A stretch of 38,034 bases of DNA, from positions 1-38,034 of IMG/VR virus record IMGVR_UViG_3300023099_000006. One strand, written 5' to 3'. The stretch is from a virus. The position numbers and the translations under genes are program-made. This document shows positions 6,843 to 23,700 of this stretch, piece after piece; positions within the stretch are counted from its first letter, which is position 1; the number at the start of each line of letters is the position of its first letter. A model generated the notes under the pieces. It had not been told where the DNA came from and searched no databases. It worked only from the letters and a program-made list of their open reading frames with translations.

Positions 6843-7182
6843 TGATATAAACCAGGAAGATTTTGCCAAGATTGACGCATCGGCATCACTTATTGCAAAG
6901 GAAAAGTTCAACATCAAGAAACAGGTTAATAAGCATTTCCTTGTAGAACCTTCTAGTGGCCAGGTATATATGATCGCATTTGGTAACGGAGAGAAGAATG
7001 AGACCAATCCAAAGGGTTTTTATGCCTACTGGGTGTGGTATTTCAATGAAGAACCGTACGGAGGGCTCATTAATTGTGTCCTTACTGACCGTTACGACTC
7101 AATAGACTACTTTGTATCTTGCATGGGTAACGCGGAAGAAACTATTAAGACAGTCATCAATGCCAAAGAAGAAAACAATTAA
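6835..7182 (+). CDS. Hypothetical protein (115 aa)
   Basis: ORF track. Has an 8-nt overlap with the upstream gene. Confidence 0.6.
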   Translation: MTNDINQEDFAKIDASASLIAKEKFNIKKQVNKHFLVEPSSGQVYMIAFGNGEKNETNPKGFYAYWVWYFNEEPYGGLINCVLTDRYDSIDYFVSCMGNAEETIKTVINAKEENN

Positions 7183-8122
7183 GATTTTGATGGTCAACAG
7201 ACCAGAAAATCAATGGATAGGGGGCGATTTCATCAAATTAAAAGCCGTAGCTGAAGAGTTGCGTCTTTTAGGTGTTGAAGTAGACATATTCGAAATGGAA
7301 ACACTTGGTATGAACGAATGGTACGGAGTTGAGAGCTACGATATTGTACATACCTGGAACTTCTCTATGCTTTGGAGCAAATATGCCATCTGGTTGGGAG
7401 GAAAGAAAAAGAAAAAGCTTGTTTCGTCGATGATTTATCACGACACAGATGTTTTCATTGATTACAAGCTTCAACAGGTGATGATGGACCACATGGACGC
7501 CTGCATTTACGAGACTGAAAGCGAAATCGAACGAGTAAAGAAACATCTTACCCCAAAGAACTCACATATTATTCCAAATGGCGTAGATTCATGGTGGTTT
7601 GAGCCAGATGAGGGAAATGTACCATTCGAGGGCTATGTGCTCACTGTGGGCCGTATAGAGCCTAATAAGGGGCAATTAGCGACTGCAGAAGCATGCCGTG
7701 AGCTAGGATTGCAATACGTCTGCATAGGCGAGATAACAGACCAGGTTTACGCAGAGAAATGCCTTGCGCAAGGTGCAATGCTTTATCCAGCTATGACCAA
7801 GGAAAAGTTAAAGCGTTGGTACAAGAATTGTGCTGTCTATGCCCAAGTATCTAAGAGTGAAACATGGGGAATGGCGGTTGATGAAGCTGGTACGCAAGGT
7901 GCTCGATTGGTTTTATCCACTGGATTCGAGAGACAAGACATACCAGACGCTGTATACTGTGATCATGACAATACAAACCTTATTACCCAAGCGTTACAGC
8001 AAGCACTTTCTCAGCCGAGAGGAGAAAGATTTAAGTTACAGCTCAAAAAAAGGACGTGGAAAAAGCACGCGCAAGAAATCCTCAAAATCTACAAAGAAAT
8101 CTTAAAACAAACAAATGAATAA
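7160..8122 (+). CDS. GT-B fold glycosyltransferase (GT1/GT4-like)
   Basis: C-terminal pattern SETWGMAVDEAGTQGARLVLS resembles the E-x7-E motif of GT4 enzymes. IEPNKGQ is also typical. Start chosen at ATG 7160 (MPKKKTIKILMV); the track ORF begins at 7112. Confidence 0.7.
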   Translation: MPKKKTIKILMVNRPENQWIGGDFIKLKAVAEELRLLGVEVDIFEMETLGMNEWYGVESYDIVHTWNFSMLWSKYAIWLGGKKKKKLVSSMIYHDTDVFIDYKLQQVMMDHMDACIYETESEIERVKKHLTPKNSHIIPNGVDSWWFEPDEGNVPFEGYVLTVGRIEPNKGQLATAEACRELGLQYVCIGEITDQVYAEKCLAQGAMLYPAMTKEKLKRWYKNCAVYAQVSKSETWGMAVDEAGTQGARLVLSTGFERQDIPDAVYCDHDNTNLITQALQQALSQPRGERFKLQLKKRTWKKHAQEILKIYKEILKQTNE

Positions 8123-9127: not shown

Positions 9128-9998
9128 AATATTAATTACTGGAGGAGAAGGATTTGTAGGACGTGCTTTTGTACGCCTTTTGAAGGACGAACATCAATTA
9201 TATATTGTAGACTTAAAAACTAATGGAGACTGCCGTGATTTCTTTAAGAACTCTACAGAACAGTTTGATTTAGTTATTCATCTAGCAGCTATTGTTGGAG
9301 GTCGTATGATGATTGAAGGAAACCCTATAGCAGTAGCTACGGACCTTTCTATTGATGCAGAAATGTTTAATTGGGCAGTAAAGACTAAACAACCACGAGT
9401 AGTGTATTTCTCCAGTAGTGCAGCATATCCAATCGCTTTACAAAGACAAATGCCTTATAGATATCTTACCGAAAGTGATATTAAATTAAATGGTGACTTT
9501 ATCGGGAATCCTGATATGAGTTATGGTTGGTCTAAAATCACTGGTGAGATGCTCGCGGAATATGCCCGAAAACAAGGTGTAAACGTCCATGTGTTCCGTC
9601 CTTTTAGTGGATACGGTGAAGACCAGGACCTGGATTATCCATTCCCTTCATTCATCAAGCGCGCAAAGGACAAGGTTGAAGAGTTCGAGATATGGGGAGA
9701 CGGTACGGCAGTTCGTGATTTCATTCACATCGATGACATCTGCGAAGCTGTAATGAAAGCAGTTGAATTGGATATCCAAGAACCAATTAACCTAGGAAGC
9801 GGAGTGGGTACCTCATTCAACGAATTAGCTGAAAAGGTAATGGAAATTTCTGGTCTTAAGGTACCCATCAAACACCATGTTGATAAACCAGTTGGAGTTA
9901 TGTACCGAGTAGGGGATAATAGTAAGATGTTAGAATTTTACACTCCTAAAATTTCACTCGAAGAAGGGATTAAGCGTTCACTTGAATATGGAAAATAA
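9120..9998 (+). CDS. NAD-dependent sugar epimerase/dehydratase (extended SDR)
   Basis: ILITGGEGFVGRAF (GxxGxxG), YGWSK (YxxxK), GDGTAVRDFIHIDD. Confidence 0.8.
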   Translation: MSKILITGGEGFVGRAFVRLLKDEHQLYIVDLKTNGDCRDFFKNSTEQFDLVIHLAAIVGGRMMIEGNPIAVATDLSIDAEMFNWAVKTKQPRVVYFSSSAAYPIALQRQMPYRYLTESDIKLNGDFIGNPDMSYGWSKITGEMLAEYARKQGVNVHVFRPFSGYGEDQDLDYPFPSFIKRAKDKVEEFEIWGDGTAVRDFIHIDDICEAVMKAVELDIQEPINLGSGVGTSFNELAEKVMEISGLKVPIKHHVDKPVGVMYRVGDNSKMLEFYTPKISLEEGIKRSLEYGK

Positions 9999-11145
9999 AC
10001 CAAAAATACTTCTAATTTCGACCGATTGGAGTCAAAATACTTACAGGACAATTAATAACAAACCTGGTGCTATTTCACAGTACCGTCTTATCTATCCTAT
10101 GCGTTACTTAGAGGAATACTATGACATCGATTATGTAGGTCCTGATTTCGCTGACAAGGTTGCAGGAAAAGACAAAGGTGCTGCATTTCATCGTTTCTTT
10201 TCTGATTACGACATGGTAATTAGTAAGATTACAGACAACCCTACAGCTGCTTCTGATATTCGATTCATGACTAGATATCTCGGTGTTGTTTTGGTAGTGG
10301 ACATCGACGATAACATTTGGGAACTCAAGCCAGATCAACCAGGATATGAAATCTATAACAAGGGAGGTGCAAGACTTGGCTTTGCTTCCACATACGTTTC
10401 AAATGCAGACGCGGTGTTTTCATCGACCAAACCTCTCGCTGATTACATCTCAAACCGAATGAAAGAAGCTCATGGTGAAGATAAACCTGTTTATGTATTA
10501 CCTAACTGTGTAGACACTAACGACTATCAGTTTCAAAAGGCTAAATTAGACCCAAATAAGATAGTTATCGGATGGCAAGGTTCTACTACTCACCATGAAG
10601 ACCTCAGAATTGCTATGCCAGCTATCGGAAAGCTTATGCAAGAATACCCAAATCTCTACCTAGAGCTTATGGGCGGTGTTTCTGACGAGATGGTAGGTGA
10701 TTTGTTTAAAGATATGCCAGAAGAATTACTTGAAAGAGTGAGAACTATCGGAGGAGGACCAGCATTTGACACCTTTCCTCATCTTTTAAGCGAGCAGGCA
10801 TGGGATATTGCTATTGCTCCTATCACAGACCATGCTTTTAATCATGCTAAGAGTCATATCAAGTGGATGGAATACGCAATGTATTCGATTCCTTGTGTTG
10901 CTTCAAAGGTTTACCCCTATTACATGCCCATCCAAGGAACCGATACCATCGTAGACGGAACTACAGGGCTTATCGCAGACGAAAAAGAATGGTATGATAA
11001 GTTGAAGTTACTTATAGACAACAAAAATCTCAGAGAAGAGATTGGAATAAATGCAAACATGTATGTTTCAAAGCATTGGCATATAAAAGAACATGTTAAA
11101 AAATGGAAAGAAGCAATAGACATGTTGTTAGAATCTAACTCGTAA
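9988..11145 (+). CDS. Second GT-B-like glycosyltransferase
   Basis: IVIGWQGSTTHHEDL...YPNLYLELMGG and KWMEYAMYSIPCVAS resemble the C-terminal Rossmann half of GT-B enzymes. Alternative start TTG 9982. Confidence 0.55.
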   Translation: MENKPKILLISTDWSQNTYRTINNKPGAISQYRLIYPMRYLEEYYDIDYVGPDFADKVAGKDKGAAFHRFFSDYDMVISKITDNPTAASDIRFMTRYLGVVLVVDIDDNIWELKPDQPGYEIYNKGGARLGFASTYVSNADAVFSSTKPLADYISNRMKEAHGEDKPVYVLPNCVDTNDYQFQKAKLDPNKIVIGWQGSTTHHEDLRIAMPAIGKLMQEYPNLYLELMGGVSDEMVGDLFKDMPEELLERVRTIGGGPAFDTFPHLLSEQAWDIAIAPITDHAFNHAKSHIKWMEYAMYSIPCVASKVYPYYMPIQGTDTIVDGTTGLIADEKEWYDKLKLLIDNKNLREEIGINANMYVSKHWHIKEHVKKWKEAIDMLLESNS

Positions 11146-17784: not shown

Positions 17785-17890
17785 ACCCTATTATCATAAT
17801 TAAGCAAAATGCTTTAAATATGAAATAAATTATTGTTATCATATTTTTGATACTACAGTACATTACAAAAACGTCAATAACTTTATCCAC

Positions 17891-17919
17891 TTGCAACAGT
17901 TCTTCACTAGTTCTATAAT
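17891..17919 (+). promoter_or_regulatory. Well-formed sigma70-type promoter: TTGCAA, 17-nt spacer, TATAAT
   Basis: -35 at 17891..17896 and -10 at 17914..17919, in a 240-bp AT-rich gap upstream of gene 18025. Confidence 0.55.
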
Positions 17920-18024
17920 AAGAGTGTAGTCATATCGACTATGAGAACTTATGAATTCGCACAATATATCTTTCGCGACACTAAATATTAAACAAATGGT
18001 TCTTAAATCAGGATATACTAGTAC

Positions 18025-18618
18025 TTGTATATGCCTCCCAACCATTTACCTGAGCTTGAAAAAAAGATGAGTGAGCTTAGGGATTCAATAGCTGAATATG
18101 CTGACAAGTTCCCAAGAATTTTTTCAAATGTAAATCCTTACCTTAAGGAGAAAAGATTTAGTGGAAATTATCTAGAATATATTATTTTTGGTACAGCTCT
18201 CATAGAGAGTATTCTTTACAGGTTTTTTGATGTACTGGCTCATAGTCATAGTTACGATTCTTTCGTCAAGGAAATCGAATCTACTGGTACAGTTTCCGAT
18301 AGTGCTGATGTTAAGATGGTATCCCGTAAAGACGAGGATCCATTTGGTGCGCTAGTAAGGAAGTTGGTTAATGATTTTAATATTGACCAGACTTACCCTA
18401 ATTTATATAAAAAATTAACAACCCTCAAAATTAAAAGAAATGCGATCGCTCATGATTTCATAGATGAGTATGAAGGAGATTTTGATAAAGCAAATAATGA
18501 CTTCAAATCTTATGCTGACGGACAACCAATCGAACTACTTATAAATGAAATAGCTAAAATTTCTGATGATATTAGGAATAAACAGGATAGTTTCTTTAAG
18601 GAAAAGTTTAAAAAATAG
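18025..18618 (+). CDS. HEPN-like protein (Rx4H motif), putative RNase/abortive-infection-type effector
   Basis: 197-aa helical protein with LKIKRNAIAHDF, where R-N-A-I-A-H fits Rx4-6H and the RNxxAH form seen in AbiD/F-type HEPN domains. Confidence 0.5.
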   Translation: MYMPPNHLPELEKKMSELRDSIAEYADKFPRIFSNVNPYLKEKRFSGNYLEYIIFGTALIESILYRFFDVLAHSHSYDSFVKEIESTGTVSDSADVKMVSRKDEDPFGALVRKLVNDFNIDQTYPNLYKKLTTLKIKRNAIAHDFIDEYEGDFDKANNDFKSYADGQPIELLINEIAKISDDIRNKQDSFFKEKFKK

Positions 18619-18639
18619 GGATTCACTTCCCTGTTTTTT
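18617..18639 (+). terminator. Rho-independent terminator after the HEPN-like gene
   Basis: AGGGA / TCCCT stem, 6-nt loop, then G + TTTTTT (18634..18639). Confidence 0.6.
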
Positions 18640-18724
18640 ATTGAAATTTTGAGGCTCTAGAATCGTTTTTAAGCCCTTCTTTATCAAAACTTGATACCAT
18701 GGTAGTGTATACTTAACGTACAAA

Positions 18725-18829
18725 AAGACTCGGCTACAGTAATCCGCTCACGCAGCGGGGTTTTCTCTTAGCCGAGTCTTCCCTCCTGATGGGCGGATTT
18801 GTGCGTGTTAGAAATAATCGACTCGGCTA
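18725..18829 (+). promoter_or_regulatory. Three-segment alternative-pairing leader upstream of gene 18834
   Basis: AAGACTCGGCTA (18725..18736) pairs perfectly (12 bp) with TAGCCGAGTCTT (18769..18780). A second copy of GACTCGGCTA (18820..18829, ending 4 nt before the ATG) can pair with the same middle segment (10 bp). Confidence 0.5.
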
Positions 18830-18833
18830 AAAT

Positions 18834-19328
18834 ATGACAAAACGCAAGAAAAAAATCCTCTATGTAGTAGGAGGTTTATTTCTAATAGGATTAATCTTAT
18901 TAGGTTTTAGATACTATAAATATACTTATAAAAAAATATTTACTTACAAATCGAACATTAGTACTTTCTATAAATATGATCTTAATTGCTCCATTGAACA
19001 TTCATCGGGATTTTATAATCCTCCAGAGAGTTACTACACTGAGTTTACAGGTCTTGAAGAAGGAGGTCTTAAATTTACATTTAAAGATTTAACACAAGAC
19101 AATGTTACTTTTCTTATTAGTGATGCAAATGGAGTTCAAGATGGTGAGTTAGTGAAAATTGTTGATACTGATGTAGCAATTCAGCTAATTAGAACGTGGT
19201 CTACAGATGAAAGTGGAATTGAATTATTTACTATCTATAAGAAAACAGGATTCTTTAGTTACGCAAAGTCTGGCGAATATTACCTATTAGGAACGGTTGC
19301 AAAAACAGCATTTGGAACTTGTCACTAA
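18834..19328 (+). CDS. N-terminally membrane-anchored or secreted protein (164 aa)
   Basis: MTKRKKK followed by hydrophobic ILYVVGGLFLIGLILLGF, then a beta-rich domain with Cys52 and Cys163. Confidence 0.65.
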   Translation: MTKRKKKILYVVGGLFLIGLILLGFRYYKYTYKKIFTYKSNISTFYKYDLNCSIEHSSGFYNPPESYYTEFTGLEEGGLKFTFKDLTQDNVTFLISDANGVQDGELVKIVDTDVAIQLIRTWSTDESGIELFTIYKKTGFFSYAKSGEYYLLGTVAKTAFGTCH

Positions 19329-19342
19329 AAATAATCAAACTG

Positions 19343-19362
19343 GCTCCTTCGGGAGCTTTTTT
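19343..19362 (+). terminator. Rho-independent terminator (GCTCC-TTCG-GGAGC followed by T6)
   Basis: Stem 19343..19347 / 19352..19356 with a TTCG tetraloop. T-run at 19357..19362. Confidence 0.8.
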
Positions 19363-19370
19363 GTTATAAT
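19362..19370 (+). promoter_or_regulatory. Extended -10 element TGTTATAAT, 6 nt upstream of ATG 19377 (possible leaderless mRNA)
   Basis: TG at 19362..19363 and TATAAT at 19365..19370. The A of the ATG lies 7 nt after the hexamer. No good -35 is present. Confidence 0.35.
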
Positions 19371-19376
19371 TCTCCC

Positions 19377-19628
19377 ATGATTCCCCTACCTAATCGAGAA
19401 AAATTCATCAAACTACTTAAAGGTGGTATGGATATAAGAAACGCTTGTAAGGAAGCTTCCATAACTCGCTCAAACCTCTATAAGTACTTTAAAGATATGC
19501 CAGGATTCCGTACAGAAGTAGATGCTATAGTTTCTGAAGTATCTCTTAAGTCCGAGACACAAAAAAAGCTCCAAGAAGAAGCTAATTTGTTAGAGATCAA
19601 GAAGATGATTTTGAATCGGAAGAGATAA
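19377..19628 (+). CDS. Small helix-turn-helix DNA-binding protein (83 aa)
   Basis: DIRNACKEASITRSNLYKYFKD resembles the ...(S/T)RSTLYRYF HTH recognition pattern. Basic C-terminal helix. Confidence 0.55.
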   Translation: MIPLPNREKFIKLLKGGMDIRNACKEASITRSNLYKYFKDMPGFRTEVDAIVSEVSLKSETQKKLQEEANLLEIKKMILNRKR

Positions 19629-20159
19629 TTAAACTATAATTCCTAACCTGTCACTTTTAATATGGCTGAACTTAATAATGGGTATTTGTGTATGAAAATA
19701 TGAATGTAAGTTAACTTCATCAGTCAGTATCACAAGATTATTTTCCTTGGCTATTTCTACTAATGAAATATCAGTAAAACCGAAATCATGAATTGTTCTA
19801 AAATTTAGAGATAAGACTTTTTCTAATGGAAAATGAAGTTCTTTAAATCCCCTAAGCTTGTCTAAGAATTTTGTAAGATAGATATGAAAATGCGGACTCT
19901 TAACTTTTATTTTAGCCTGATTAGATATTTCAGCTAAAATAGATGGAGTAATAATTATCTCTGGTTTAAAATGAGAGATAAGTTCTAATAAAATATCGAA
20001 ATCTTCGGCGGTATATTTAGACTTAACTAATTCACATTCGCAAATATAATCCTTATTATAGATTCCTATAAGTAATAAGTGCAGTATATTCGTATCAATT
20101 AAAAGTCCAACCTTACCATACTTGGTACGATATTTTTTAATGTCATCAAACGAGTACAC
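19629..20159 (-). CDS. PIN-like nuclease (176 aa), putative toxin/effector
   Basis: LLIDTNIL (Asp22), TPSILAEISN (Glu77), FGFTDISLVEIAKENNLVILTDE (Asp130, Asp147) match the order of the four acidic PIN residues. Confidence 0.6.
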   Translation of the reverse strand: MYSFDDIKKYRTKYGKVGLLIDTNILHLLLIGIYNKDYICECELVKSKYTAEDFDILLELISHFKPEIIITPSILAEISNQAKIKVKSPHFHIYLTKFLDKLRGFKELHFPLEKVLSLNFRTIHDFGFTDISLVEIAKENNLVILTDEVNLHSYFHTQIPIIKFSHIKSDRLGIIV

Positions 20160-20165
20160 GTTTTA

Positions 20166-20426
20166 TTAAACTTTTCTGATCACCATTGAAAGAACTGTTC
20201 CCTCAGGAGTCACTTCAAAGTCTTTATATTCTCTCTGTTTGTCAAAAGCAAAATCACCAGTTATATCATAACTTAAAGTAATTTTATAATTCCCTCCTGC
20301 ATGAGTTAAAGCTTCTTCTAATCTAAAATTAGAAATTTTTTCTTTACTAGTTCCACTTGCCGCAAGTGCTGTAATTAAATATTCTAGAGCTCCGTTAACA
20401 GCAAGTGACAATGTTTCTTTTGACAT
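20166..20426 (-). CDS. 86-aa partner protein upstream of the PIN-like gene (antitoxin/regulator candidate; fold not recognised)
   Basis: ORF track. 6-nt gap to the PIN gene on the same strand. I see no RHH, AbrB, Phd or HTH motif. Confidence 0.6.
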   Translation of the reverse strand: MSKETLSLAVNGALEYLITALAASGTSKEKISNFRLEEALTHAGGNYKITLSYDITGDFAFDKQREYKDFEVTPEGTVLSMVIRKV

Positions 20427-20591
20427 ATATTCTCGTTATTTTTTGATTAGTCTTCGTATAGATATTCTATCACGATTGAGCCGCAAGCATAACAGATATG
20501 CACTACTTAAGCAATTAAGACACAAATTTTTTAATGTACTATTCCCCTCCTCTACTTGCCCATTTCATAGGTTGAGGACACTTACTATATC

Positions 20592-20700
20592 TTTTACGAC
20601 ATATATACAATAAAATAACCTTTAATCCCCTACCGCTATTCATAACGGTATTTTAACAATTCATGACTTTAACGTCAATACAATTATTATTTTACGACAT
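20592..20700. repeat. 11-bp direct repeat TTTTACGACAT (20592..20602 and 20690..20700) in the 347-bp divergent intergenic region
   Basis: Exact match read from the sequence. No ORF of useful length on either strand in 20427..20773. Confidence 0.7.
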
Positions 20701-20773
20701 TAGAGGTCCACCTTGTTTGCACCTCCCTTCCAACACATGTATACTGATGTTAATATAATACCCTAACTAAAAA

Positions 20774-23700
20774 ATGGATAAAGAACCAATAGAAATTAAG
20801 ATTACAGGAGATTTTGTAAAGACCAACGACTTCTTAAAGGTCAACGAAACAATCCTAGCTCTCATCAAAAAAGCTAAGAATGAAGGCGATACTTCAATGG
20901 AAGTAAAACTCCGTGAAGTGTGGAATGCTCTCACCGCTCTAAACGATTCTTATACCCAGATATCAAGCAATCTAGGTCTCACAGCAAAAAAACAGGAAGA
21001 AAAGATGAACTCGATTAAAAACGAGATTCTTTCGACTATCTCCGACTTTAAAAAGACATTCAGCAAGGAACTCTACAACAAGGCCGACATCGGGGAAATA
21101 CCAGAAGAACTTACGTCAGACCAACTCAAGGAAAAGCTTAAAGGAAAATTGTCGCTGGCTGACATAACCGACGGTAATATTCTCATTGACAAGAAAACCT
21201 TTGAAATGGCTATCATCGAGATAGGTGGAAAGCTGCAAGTGGTTGAAAAACGTACAGCTAAAGGTTATGGAGCACTCGGAGGTGGTTCTGAAGGTACTGG
21301 TTCCCTATTCTTGTCACGGCTTCGTGACGTCGATGTCACAGGTCTCCCCTTCATAAACGGTAAATATAAACTTTATAACCCTGGCGGTGGAGGAGGTTCT
21401 GCAGTATGGGGTGATATAACAGGAACCATTACAGACCAAACAGACCTTGTCGCTTACATAGCTTCACAAGTGTCTGCATCATCATTTTGGTCACGAGATA
21501 GTATAAATGGTGATATTTATCCTACTACTCTTACTGATATGGTATCTATTGGTAGTAACACTGCCACACATTCATTGACGTTAGGTTCAACAGCAACAGG
21601 GTATGCTGACTACAATACCGTAGACCAAACTACTAACTACGAACGTGCTCGTGGAGCATGGGTAAGTAACGTCTATACAATCACAACAGAGAGTGGTGGA
21701 ACTGGGGTAAACAGAAACCTTATTTTAACTGCTGGTTCAGGCACAGCACGAGCTCTCACTGTAAGAGGTATTCCTACTATATTAGGTGCAGTAACAGCTA
21801 TTGGTTCATCTGGTACTGGATCAATAAGCTCATTCGGAATAACTGGAACATTAAGTGCTTCTAGTAACATCCAACAAGGTCTTTCAATCTTTAATTCTAT
21901 TTCTCAGACTGGTACTGCTGGTTATCGTTCAATATTTGTATCTACATTTGAAAATACACTAGGTTCAGGATCAAAATATTTGATAGACCTCGGTACAAAC
22001 TCTGCAGCTAACGGTGCTGGAACACACACTTCATTATTTGTTGTCACAAACCAAGGTAATACTGGTATAGCTACATCAATACCTACTTCAACAAACGGCG
22101 GTATTGATATTGCATCTGGCGGATTTGGTCTAATAATTGGTGCAGACAATAATGCCTCAACTCGAACCAATGCTACAGCGAAACTCGCTCGTATAGGTGG
22201 TTATCATTACACAAACACTGAAGAACCTATAACGTTTATGACGATGAACGCTGCGTCAGGCGGTAATAATCTTAACATTGGTGGAGGTTCAGGAATCATG
22301 AACTCTGCAACGCAGATAGATTTCTATACAGGAGCAAACAGTACTACTCTCAATGGACTTTCTCGAATGACCATTACAAGCGCTGGTTTGGTCGGATTCA
22401 TGACTCAAGCTCCTACTCACAACATAACGATGAGTAGTACTTCAAATGGAATAGCTGACTACAATACCGCGGATCAGACCACAAACTATGAACGTGTTGT
22501 CCATCAGTGGAGTGGTAGTGTCTATTCTTTATCAGCAAATGCAGGTGGTACAGGAGTGCAACGTACCATCTCGACCATTGTTCAAGGAACCGTCCTTTCT
22601 GTAAACAACGCAGGAATCAGTACTACCATAGGAGGAGTAGACATCAGTCGAAGTGGAGCACATGGATTTCTTTTCTCCCTTGGTGGAGTTATTAACTCAG
22701 CGTTAATTCTTCAAAACATTCAATCAATATTCCCCAGTGTTAGCCAGTCTGGTACCGCAGGTTATCGAACATTGTGGATTTCACCGTATGAACAAACAAC
22801 GGGATCTGGTATTAAATACCTCATTGATGCAGGAACGAACAGCGCGGGTGGCGGTACAGGCACACATACATCTAAATTTATTGTTGATAACAGCGGTAAC
22901 ATGCTTTCAGCTGCTTCCGTTTACCATAACTTCGGGACTACCATCGGTACCACAGGATATGGTTTCCGTGACAACGCTGGAACGATGGAATACAAGAACT
23001 CAGGTGGATCATGGACGGCGTTCTCAGGTGGTGGAGGTACTCCAGGAGGCTCTACTACACAGCTTCAATACAACAACGCAGGCGCGTTTGGTGGAATTTC
23101 AGGCGCTACTACAAACGGTACATCCGTAACGTATACAGCAAATAATCTTATCGCTACAAGTCCTAGATTTATTACGTCAATAGACGATACTAATGGTAAT
23201 GAGTTGCTAGTTTTCGCTCCTTCTGCTTCTGCAGTTAATGAATTAACATTTTCAAACGGTGCAACGGGCAGTGCTCCTAAATTTATAGCTTCTGGTTCCG
23301 ATACGAACATTGGGATTGATTTCATGATGAAAGGTAATGCTACTATTAACTTTCTCGGTACATCTACTAAACAGGCTAGTTTTACCCTTTTTGAACAAAC
23401 GACAAACGGTTTTGATGGTATTGTTTTTCAAGCACCAGCTTCTATAACTACTTTTAGAATTCAAACCCTACAAGACGCAGACGGAACAGTAGCATTGACA
23501 CTTCCTTACGGCGCAAAAGCCTATAGAAACACGAGCGTACAGTCGATTCCTAACAACACGACGACTAAAATTCAGCTAAATGCTGAGGATTGGGACTTGT
23601 CTAATGAATTTGATCCGACCACTAACTATCGCTATACCGCCACTACCGCTGGTTACTACATGATTACTTGCGCGGTGAAATGGAACTCTGCAACTTCTGG

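Follow-up and report, generated by a model that had tools for sequence, protein, structure and literature searches.

The question raised by this locus is what two adjacent minus-strand genes, coding for proteins of 86 and 176 amino acids (aa), are doing in a virus. Both are carried by IMG/VR virus record IMGVR_UViG_3300023099_000006, whose positions 1 to 38,034 were analysed as one stretch of 38,034 nucleotides, referred to below as the window. Reading the letters alone, a first-pass annotation had taken the longer product for a PIN-like nuclease and the shorter for a protein of unrecognised type in the antitoxin position, and had proposed either a VapBC-like module with a novel antitoxin or a two-gene anti-phage or anti-host effector. 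The first of these proposals is the best-supported reading of the results presented here. In the form that we favour, with a probability of roughly 60%, the pair is a mobile, self-contained type II toxin-antitoxin (TA) operon, VapBC-like or acting by abortive infection, whose uncharacterised antitoxin would not bind DNA.

The coordinates, strand and 6-nt spacing of the two genes were as annotated (Table 1). Both open reading frames (ORFs) are real genes and not chance ORFs, since homologues exist for each, the gene order is conserved, and both are under purifying selection, with dN/dS near 0.08 in one comparison between two loci (small gene 0.083, PIN gene 0.078). The GTG start of the PIN gene is credible because homologous proteins share this start in the alignment, in several cases with ATG as the codon. 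The claim that no other gene lies on the reverse strand holds for the ORFs supported by homology, all others of which are on the plus strand; minus-strand ORFs of 70-126 aa do exist, but a PHROG search gave no support to the five others searched.

The 176-aa protein has a predicted PIN fold with a conserved acidic site. Its AlphaFold2 model, built on 10 sequences (predicted local distance difference test score, pLDDT, 85.8; predicted template modelling score 0.84), is a three-layer alpha/beta/alpha fold with a parallel sheet, in agreement with solved PIN domains. In a Foldseek comparison with the PDB, the top matches were all PIN domains of the VapC group, with probability 1.00 and target-normalised template modelling (TM) scores of 0.6-0.7. 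Among them were PAE2754 (1v8o, E 2.5e-4), AF0591 (1o4w), PAE0151 (2fe1), VapC of Shigella (5ecw, TM 0.69) and VapBC of Mycobacterium tuberculosis (5x3t). Entries for the HARP type of ribonuclease (RNase) P were also matched, more weakly (TM 0.41-0.47, E 6e-3 or worse). With a profile of 145 family members, matches were obtained to the MJ1533 PIN domain (3i8o, E 4.1e-4) and to that of AF0591 (1o4w, E 1.2e-3), the acidic motifs being aligned. For the 176-aa protein itself, no Pfam, NCBIfam, PHROG or PADLOC model reached its threshold, the best Pfam match being PF20698 (PIN-TPR-GreABC; E 0.029, 15 bits against a cut-off of 27.8). Several family members gave sub-threshold matches to PF01850, PIN_2, PIN_3, PIN_8, PIN_9 and PF20698, of which the best for any relative was to PF01850 (E 6.6e-4, under the gathering threshold), and none of the members tested matched PIN_5 or Fcf1.

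The acidic residues are conserved at the canonical PIN positions: the end of strand 1, the helix that follows strand 2, the N-terminus of the helix that follows strand 3, and the segment just behind strand 4. The motifs LLIDTNIL, ILAEISN, FTDISLVEIA and ILTDE, on which the nuclease assignment had first been based, are present and contain these residues. Across the 145 members, D22 and E77 are each kept in 144, D130 in 143 and T146 in 141. Of the two aspartates originally placed in the acidic site, Asp22 therefore stands, while Asp147 is kept in 111 of 145 and it is position 148 (E148 in the phage protein) that is acidic in every member. E107, which had not been listed, is a further invariant acidic residue (145/145). 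The protein is indeed longer than a typical VapC of about 130 aa; in the AlphaFold2 model the extra length consists of a helix at the N-terminus (residues 4-14) and of a first helical segment that is extended between D22 and E77, not of an added domain. The family is large. When 1.84 billion representative proteins were scanned with HMMER, the family amounted to 3,127 or more 50%-identity clusters at E<=1e-3, of which 1,973 reached E<=1e-10, and the best 150 clusters are nearly all 150-190 aa long. The median isoelectric point (pI) of the family is 6.6. One PIN-like homologue (P0005; 156 aa, on a 1.3-kb NCBI contig) diverges and stops just short of the ILTD(D/E) motif, and may be a frameshifted, inactivated copy of the toxin.

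For the 86-aa partner, no match was found in Pfam, PHROG, PADLOC or NCBIfam, nor in a sequence search of the PDB. Its AlphaFold2 model, built on 95 sequences, has a pLDDT of 95.2 and is compact, without a disordered tail. A helix (residues 3-23) is followed by antiparallel strands (31-41, 47-56, 63-72 and 78-83), as had been suggested from the sequence. Foldseek returned nothing significant for this model (best E 0.023 in the PDB, and 0.0039 in BFVD for an uncharacterised protein); the best structural neighbours were TraM, TraH and NTF2-like proteins, at a query-normalised TM of about 0.5, and no DNA-binding neighbour was present in the PDB or BFVD. Six residues, R35, S52, F61, K68, F70 and M81, are invariant in the 95 sequences, and the pI is 5.3 (family median 5.5). 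A single-sequence search found 3 homologues and a profile of 7 found at least 140; all relatives from the profile search that carry an organism name belong to Patescibacteria (among them Giovannonibacteria, Shapirobacteria, Doudnabacteria, Minisyncoccia and Parcubacteria). The lack of any RHH, AbrB, Phd/YefM or HTH signature, remarked on at the outset, agrees with the absence of a Pfam match and with the globular alpha+beta model. Judged by sequence and predicted structure, the 86-aa protein is not a VapB-type antitoxin, and DNA binding is not suggested by any result.

As the first-pass annotation anticipated for a genuine module, the two genes occur together elsewhere almost without exception. 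Scans with narrow patterns from the small-protein alignment returned 5 genome loci and 15 metagenome loci. When 34 loci (33 fetched ones plus the window; about 22 distinct; from Patescibacteria and metagenomes) were scanned with hidden Markov models (HMMs), the PIN gene was found directly 3' of the small gene on the same strand in 33. Across about 26 loci other than the window, the intergenic gap ranges from -4 to about 30 nt. The association is also seen from the other side, since the loci reached through the PIN protein (P0002-P0007, P0276 and four cyanobacterial plasmids) all have the small gene upstream; for the distant representative P0276, the upstream small-protein homologue overlaps by 4 nt. 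A tblastn search with another distant member, P0200, led to five cyanobacterial plasmids. The cyanobacterial plasmid genes are named 'hypothetical protein' and 'PIN domain-containing protein' in RefSeq, overlap by 4 nt, and were both confirmed by HMM. No PIN gene without its partner was seen among the inspected loci. The single exception to the pairing (L025; 422-1075, 1132-1617) has the small domain C-terminal to a Cys-rich region, followed by a DUF5662 protein and no PIN gene. Orphan antitoxins are tolerated, while orphan toxins are not. Distances among the small proteins and among their PIN partners are correlated (Mantel r 0.61, reached by 0 of 5,000 permutations).

The neighbours of the pair differ at every locus, and no third gene recurs beside it across the inspected loci. 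They include serine recombinases, a tyrosine integrase with MerR, a terminase, HsdM/HsdS with a NYN nuclease, an OLD-family nuclease, DUF4145, ribosomal-protein genes, tRNA synthetases, EF-P, SSB and ABC transporters. The HsdM/HsdS and NYN nuclease genes adjoin the pair in a Giovannonibacteria locus, and the OLD-family nuclease is a few genes away from it on a Staskawiczbacteria contig. On all four of the inspected cyanobacterial plasmids (L035-L038), the pair lies between the genes of a DUF499 ATPase and a DUF1156 methyltransferase, which belong to 'BREX-related' systems (PMC12839542). The same gap also houses MazEF, DUF433/DUF5615-PIN, macro/DUF4433 and HTH/ImmA modules, and is a collecting site for TA-like modules. 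On three of the four plasmids (L035, L037 and L038), a conserved 142-aa DUF7680 gene follows DUF499. The distribution of the pair is thus mobile and patchy, covering phage, plasmids, integrase neighbours and defence islands. Variable neighbourhoods, locations in mobile elements and partners that are inherited together are the general marks of a TA module, and all three are seen here.

The window itself carries the gene set of a tailed phage, with small and large terminase, a portal- or adaptor-like protein, a major head protein, an endolysin and a DnaD-like helicase loader. None of 50,697 GenBank phage records matches it at the DNA level, and no terminase among them is more than about 41% identical to its own. 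The host may be a bacterium of the Candidate Phyla Radiation (CPR), because relatives of the pair are found mainly in Patescibacteria. The pair has a GC content of 29.3%, whereas the remainder of the phage averages 39.1% and has no 800-nt window under 31.1%. Such a low GC content is the signature of recent acquisition, and the pair fits a moron that was acquired recently by the phage. The nearest chromosomal copy is 71% identical in the small protein and 61% in the PIN protein.

These results suggest how the module might work. A tailed phage would have picked up the two-gene operon as a moron, and from a shared transcript the 86-aa protein would be translated first. The 176-aa protein is predicted to be a VapC-like, metal-dependent endoribonuclease, in which five or six conserved acidic residues (D22, E77, E107, D130, D147 and E148) would bind Mg2+ or Mn2+ in a pocket at the C-terminal edge of the parallel sheet. 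Its fold and the conservation of these residues are backed by the models and counts above; its RNase activity and RNA target are inferred. The 86-aa protein would act as a folded, acidic, globular inhibitor, probably bound 1:1 over the active-site face of the nuclease, with the invariant R35 and K68 as candidate plugs for the acidic pocket. Since the small protein has no DNA-binding domain, it could not autoregulate the operon in the classical manner. Depletion, titration or displacement of the small protein, for example through shut-off of expression or infection by another phage, could then set the nuclease free, and the freed nuclease would lead to growth arrest or abortive infection. To the phage, the benefit may be its own retention or the exclusion of competitors. 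We infer the toxicity of the RNase, its inhibition through direct binding by the folded small protein and the arrest or abortive infection upon release.

Several observations weigh against a TA operon of this kind. The small protein is folded throughout, the pLDDT of 95 extending over all 86 residues, and it is as conserved as the nuclease, with a mean column identity of 59% against 51%; classical labile antitoxins have fast-evolving tails, which the 86-aa protein does not. With a family median pI of 6.6, the nuclease cannot be called basic, and the contrast in pI between the partners is modest. Some loci adjoin a ribosomal-protein operon or tRNA synthetases, where a housekeeping role would fit as well. 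No PADLOC model matches either protein. Finally, tblastn found the pair in none of the 50,697 GenBank phages, and narrow pattern scans of IMG/VR (with the small-protein alignment, the window PIN protein and P0170) found no relatives of it; a degenerate GFTD...LTD(D/E) DNA pattern gave 33 matches there, of which 0 were true homologues by HMM. Such rarity in phage collections implies that a phage-specific role is not general. A bolder version of the TA reading would make the 86-aa protein the first of a new antitoxin class: a stable globular sensor and inhibitor in one, which keeps the VapC-like RNase inactive until a phage or stress cue binds or displaces it. The pair would then be a widespread and hitherto overlooked abortive-infection system of Patescibacteria and Cyanobacteria, whose host version is neutralised or outcompeted by the phage-captured copy. 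This version is unlikely, although not strikingly so.

Three other explanations were weighed against the TA operon. According to the one that survives best, which is nevertheless quite unlikely, the phage copy serves counter-defence: it would supply the small inhibitor to silence a homologous abortive-infection PIN protein of the host, with the linked nuclease as a passenger or as a host-takeover RNase. Among the presumed hosts the module is common, the at least 140 small-protein clusters being mostly from Patescibacteria, and it is apparently rare in phages, as judged from the collections scanned above. Its low GC content and its identities to the nearest chromosomal copy speak for recent acquisition, the pair has its own divergent promoter region, and the window shows no integrase match among the ORFs scanned (most short ORFs were left out), nor any unassigned ORF of integrase length. 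On the other hand, the nuclease gene is intact with all its catalytic residues, which would be needless for a pure supply of antitoxin; an identity of 71% to the closest known homologue makes cross-neutralisation uncertain; and an orphan small gene was not found in the viral collections by the narrow scans.

Less likely again is a non-toxic, two-subunit RNA-processing nuclease, in which a PIN protein similar to Fcf1/Nob1 or HARP would take part in rRNA or tRNA maturation, the small protein would position substrates or assist assembly instead of inhibiting, and the phage would carry its copy as a host-like auxiliary gene. Two family members are indeed labelled 'rRNA-processing protein FCF1' in IMG, but these names are automatic. 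The nearest relatives include AF0591, of the archaeal Fcf1-like group (PIN_9/COG1412), and the PIN domain of MJ1533, and the HARP minimal RNase P is among the Foldseek matches; against this, the HARP matches are weak and Pfam PIN_5 or Fcf1 is found in 0 members. The equally strong constraint on both proteins and the stable fold of the small one would suit such an enzyme, as would the loci beside ribosomal-protein and tRNA-synthetase genes. However, neighbourhoods are not conserved and often contain integrases, restriction-modification (RM) systems or defence islands, the pair is present on plasmids and in a phage to whose GC content it is foreign, and it is distributed across the distant phyla Patescibacteria and Cyanobacteria. 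As for the last explanation, that the pair is a non-autonomous accessory effector of BREX-related (bacteriophage exclusion-related) DUF499/DUF1156 or RM systems, with the small protein as the sensor or adaptor that couples the nuclease to the core, it is very unlikely even though PIN endoribonucleases are reported as occasional auxiliary effectors of BREX and BREX-related (BR) loci (PMC12839542) and the cyanobacterial, Giovannonibacteria and Staskawiczbacteria placements described above accord with it, for most loci, and the phage, have no such system nearby, and unrelated autonomous TA modules (MazEF, DUF433/DUF5615, macro/DUF4433) share the DUF499-DUF1156 gap, which suggests an insertion hot-spot over functional coupling.

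The features of the locus are collected in Table 1.

Table 1. Positions of the gene pair, its flanking signals and the surrounding island in the window
Feature	Positions	Strand	Remarks
Small partner gene (86 aa), putative antitoxin	20166-20426	-	ATG start
PIN-fold gene (176 aa), putative Mg2+/Mn2+-dependent endoribonuclease toxin	19629-20159	-	GTG start
Spacer between small-gene stop and PIN GTG	20160-20165	-	6 nt; typical of an operon with translational coupling
Possible extended -10 element TGATAGAAT	20464-20472	-	37 nt 5' of the small-gene ATG; from reading of the sequence only
Alternative sigma-70-like promoter TTGACG-17-TAAAAT, TG before -10	20650-20678	-	about 220 nt 5' of the small gene
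Terminator-like hairpin with T run	19567-19583	-	46 nt 3' of the PIN stop; within the 3'-terminal part of the convergent HTH gene
Low-GC accessory island	17785-20773		between tail genes and a 1049-aa tail-fibre-like gene; 31.9% GC

Two candidate promoters may serve the pair. The more distant one agrees with the consensus at 10/12 positions, which is a consensus match only, and the nearer TGATAGAAT element is absent from the consensus promoter scan, which demands a -35 element. No convincing operator-like inverted repeat was found 5' of the operon, and an Rfam scan of 19000-21000 returned no RNA elements. The motif TTTTACGACAT is present twice in the 347-nt divergent intergenic region (20584-20606 and 20690-20700), and the first of these sites, 23 nt in length, shares 74% identity with the start-codon region of the small gene (20408-20430).

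Besides the pair, the accessory island contains three small plus-strand genes. The first (18025-18618) codes for a 197-aa protein with an R-x4-H motif (KRNAIAHD) and weak matches to HEPN_MAE_28990 (E 0.036) and PADLOC PD-T4-2_B (E 0.019); this HEPN-like protein may be a second accessory gene of RNase type. It was considered as a linked component of the system and rejected, being unrelated to the 197-aa neighbours at two other loci (L005 and L006) or to the DUF4145 neighbour at a third (L003). The second (18834-19328) codes for a 164-aa protein with a hydrophobic N-terminal segment and no family match, and is followed on its 3' side by a strong terminator-like hairpin (19342-19357). The third (19377-19628) codes for an 83-aa HTH_7 protein (E 2.5e-5), with a likeness in PHROGs to small terminase subunits, and its stop codon abuts that of the convergent PIN gene. 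As a third, regulatory component this HTH_7 gene was likewise rejected, for no HTH gene recurs beside the pair elsewhere. Convergent transcription between it and the pair is possible because no plus-strand terminator-like site was found antisense to the pair. Outside the island, two glycosyltransferase-like plus-strand genes (7112-8122 and 9982-11145; phrog_2170 and phrog_7162) are located inside the structural block, with head genes on one side and tail genes on the other.

If the pair is a TA operon as proposed, a function would be given to a large, uncurated family of nucleases, which numbers no fewer than 3,127 clusters (50% identity), with neither partner curated. A type of antitoxin that neither binds DNA nor is disordered would be added as well, which alters how such modules could be controlled and set off. 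Patescibacteria, in which the family is concentrated, have a poorly known defence repertoire; members of the CPR largely lack CRISPR (PMC4742961). Taken together, the phage copy and the TA-rich gap in cyanobacterial BREX-related operons offer a testable candidate for a phage-host conflict. A PIN toxin with a new antitoxin would leave current understanding standing.

Among known proteins, the small partner resembles NTF2-like, cystatin-like and PepSY-like folds in having one helix on a curved antiparallel sheet. The likeness is limited to this outline: no significant structure match and no sequence relationship to any of the three was found, the Foldseek E value for NTF2-like proteins is 0.08 or worse, and the small protein is about two-thirds of NTF2 size, without the additional NTF2 helices. 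One cyanobacterial small protein matches PepSY at E 0.05 (14.4 bits against a cut-off of 24). As to the nuclease, AF0591 (1o4w) and the PIN domain of MJ1533 (3i8o) are the only solved structures reached by the family profile and are also top Foldseek matches. In the alignment with 3i8o, the E77, E107, D130 and T146-x-D148 motifs of the family line up. Both are archaeal, with 16-18% identity, and no partner homologous to the 86-aa protein is known for either; for PIN_9, the family of AF0591, E values are only 0.026-0.23 on single family members. HARP differs further, with its PIN_5 sequence, helical spike insertion and stand-alone gene, while the PIN protein of the pair is always partnered; the pair therefore does not belong to HARP.

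For TA systems, the PIN classification of Matelska et al. (PMC5499597) contains many VapC-like clusters, and in the parts of its text reached by term searches, none paired with a protein like the 86-aa one turned up. No description of the pair or of its antitoxin type was found in the literature. Precedent for a protein antitoxin that only binds its toxin and has no DNA-binding domain is given by PaaR-PaaA-ParE and omega-epsilon-zeta (PMC5086665). Those three-component systems have a conserved third gene for a repressor and toxins of the ParE or zeta type, whereas no third gene recurs beside the pair.

The closest comparison is with VapBC. That system is defined by a DNA-binding antitoxin with an extended toxin-binding region, and a classical VapB inhibits through its disordered C-terminal tail. 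According to Pfam, AlphaFold2 and Foldseek, the 86-aa protein has neither element: domains of the AbrB, RHH, Phd/YefM and HTH types are absent, the C-terminus does not form a disordered tail, and the whole is predicted to be a folded alpha+beta protein. On the toxin side, the phage candidate differs from VapC in its length (176 against about 130 aa), its extra N-terminal helix and longer first helical segment, its invariant E107, and a score under the gathering threshold of every Pfam PIN family. What the pair shares with VapBC is a PIN fold of the VapC group in the 176-aa protein, including the acidic residues at the 'GFTD' helix N-terminus and after the 'ILTD' strand; a small gene upstream in the same orientation, closely spaced or with a 4-nt overlap; and a mobile, patchy spread through plasmids, phage, integrase neighbourhoods and defence islands.

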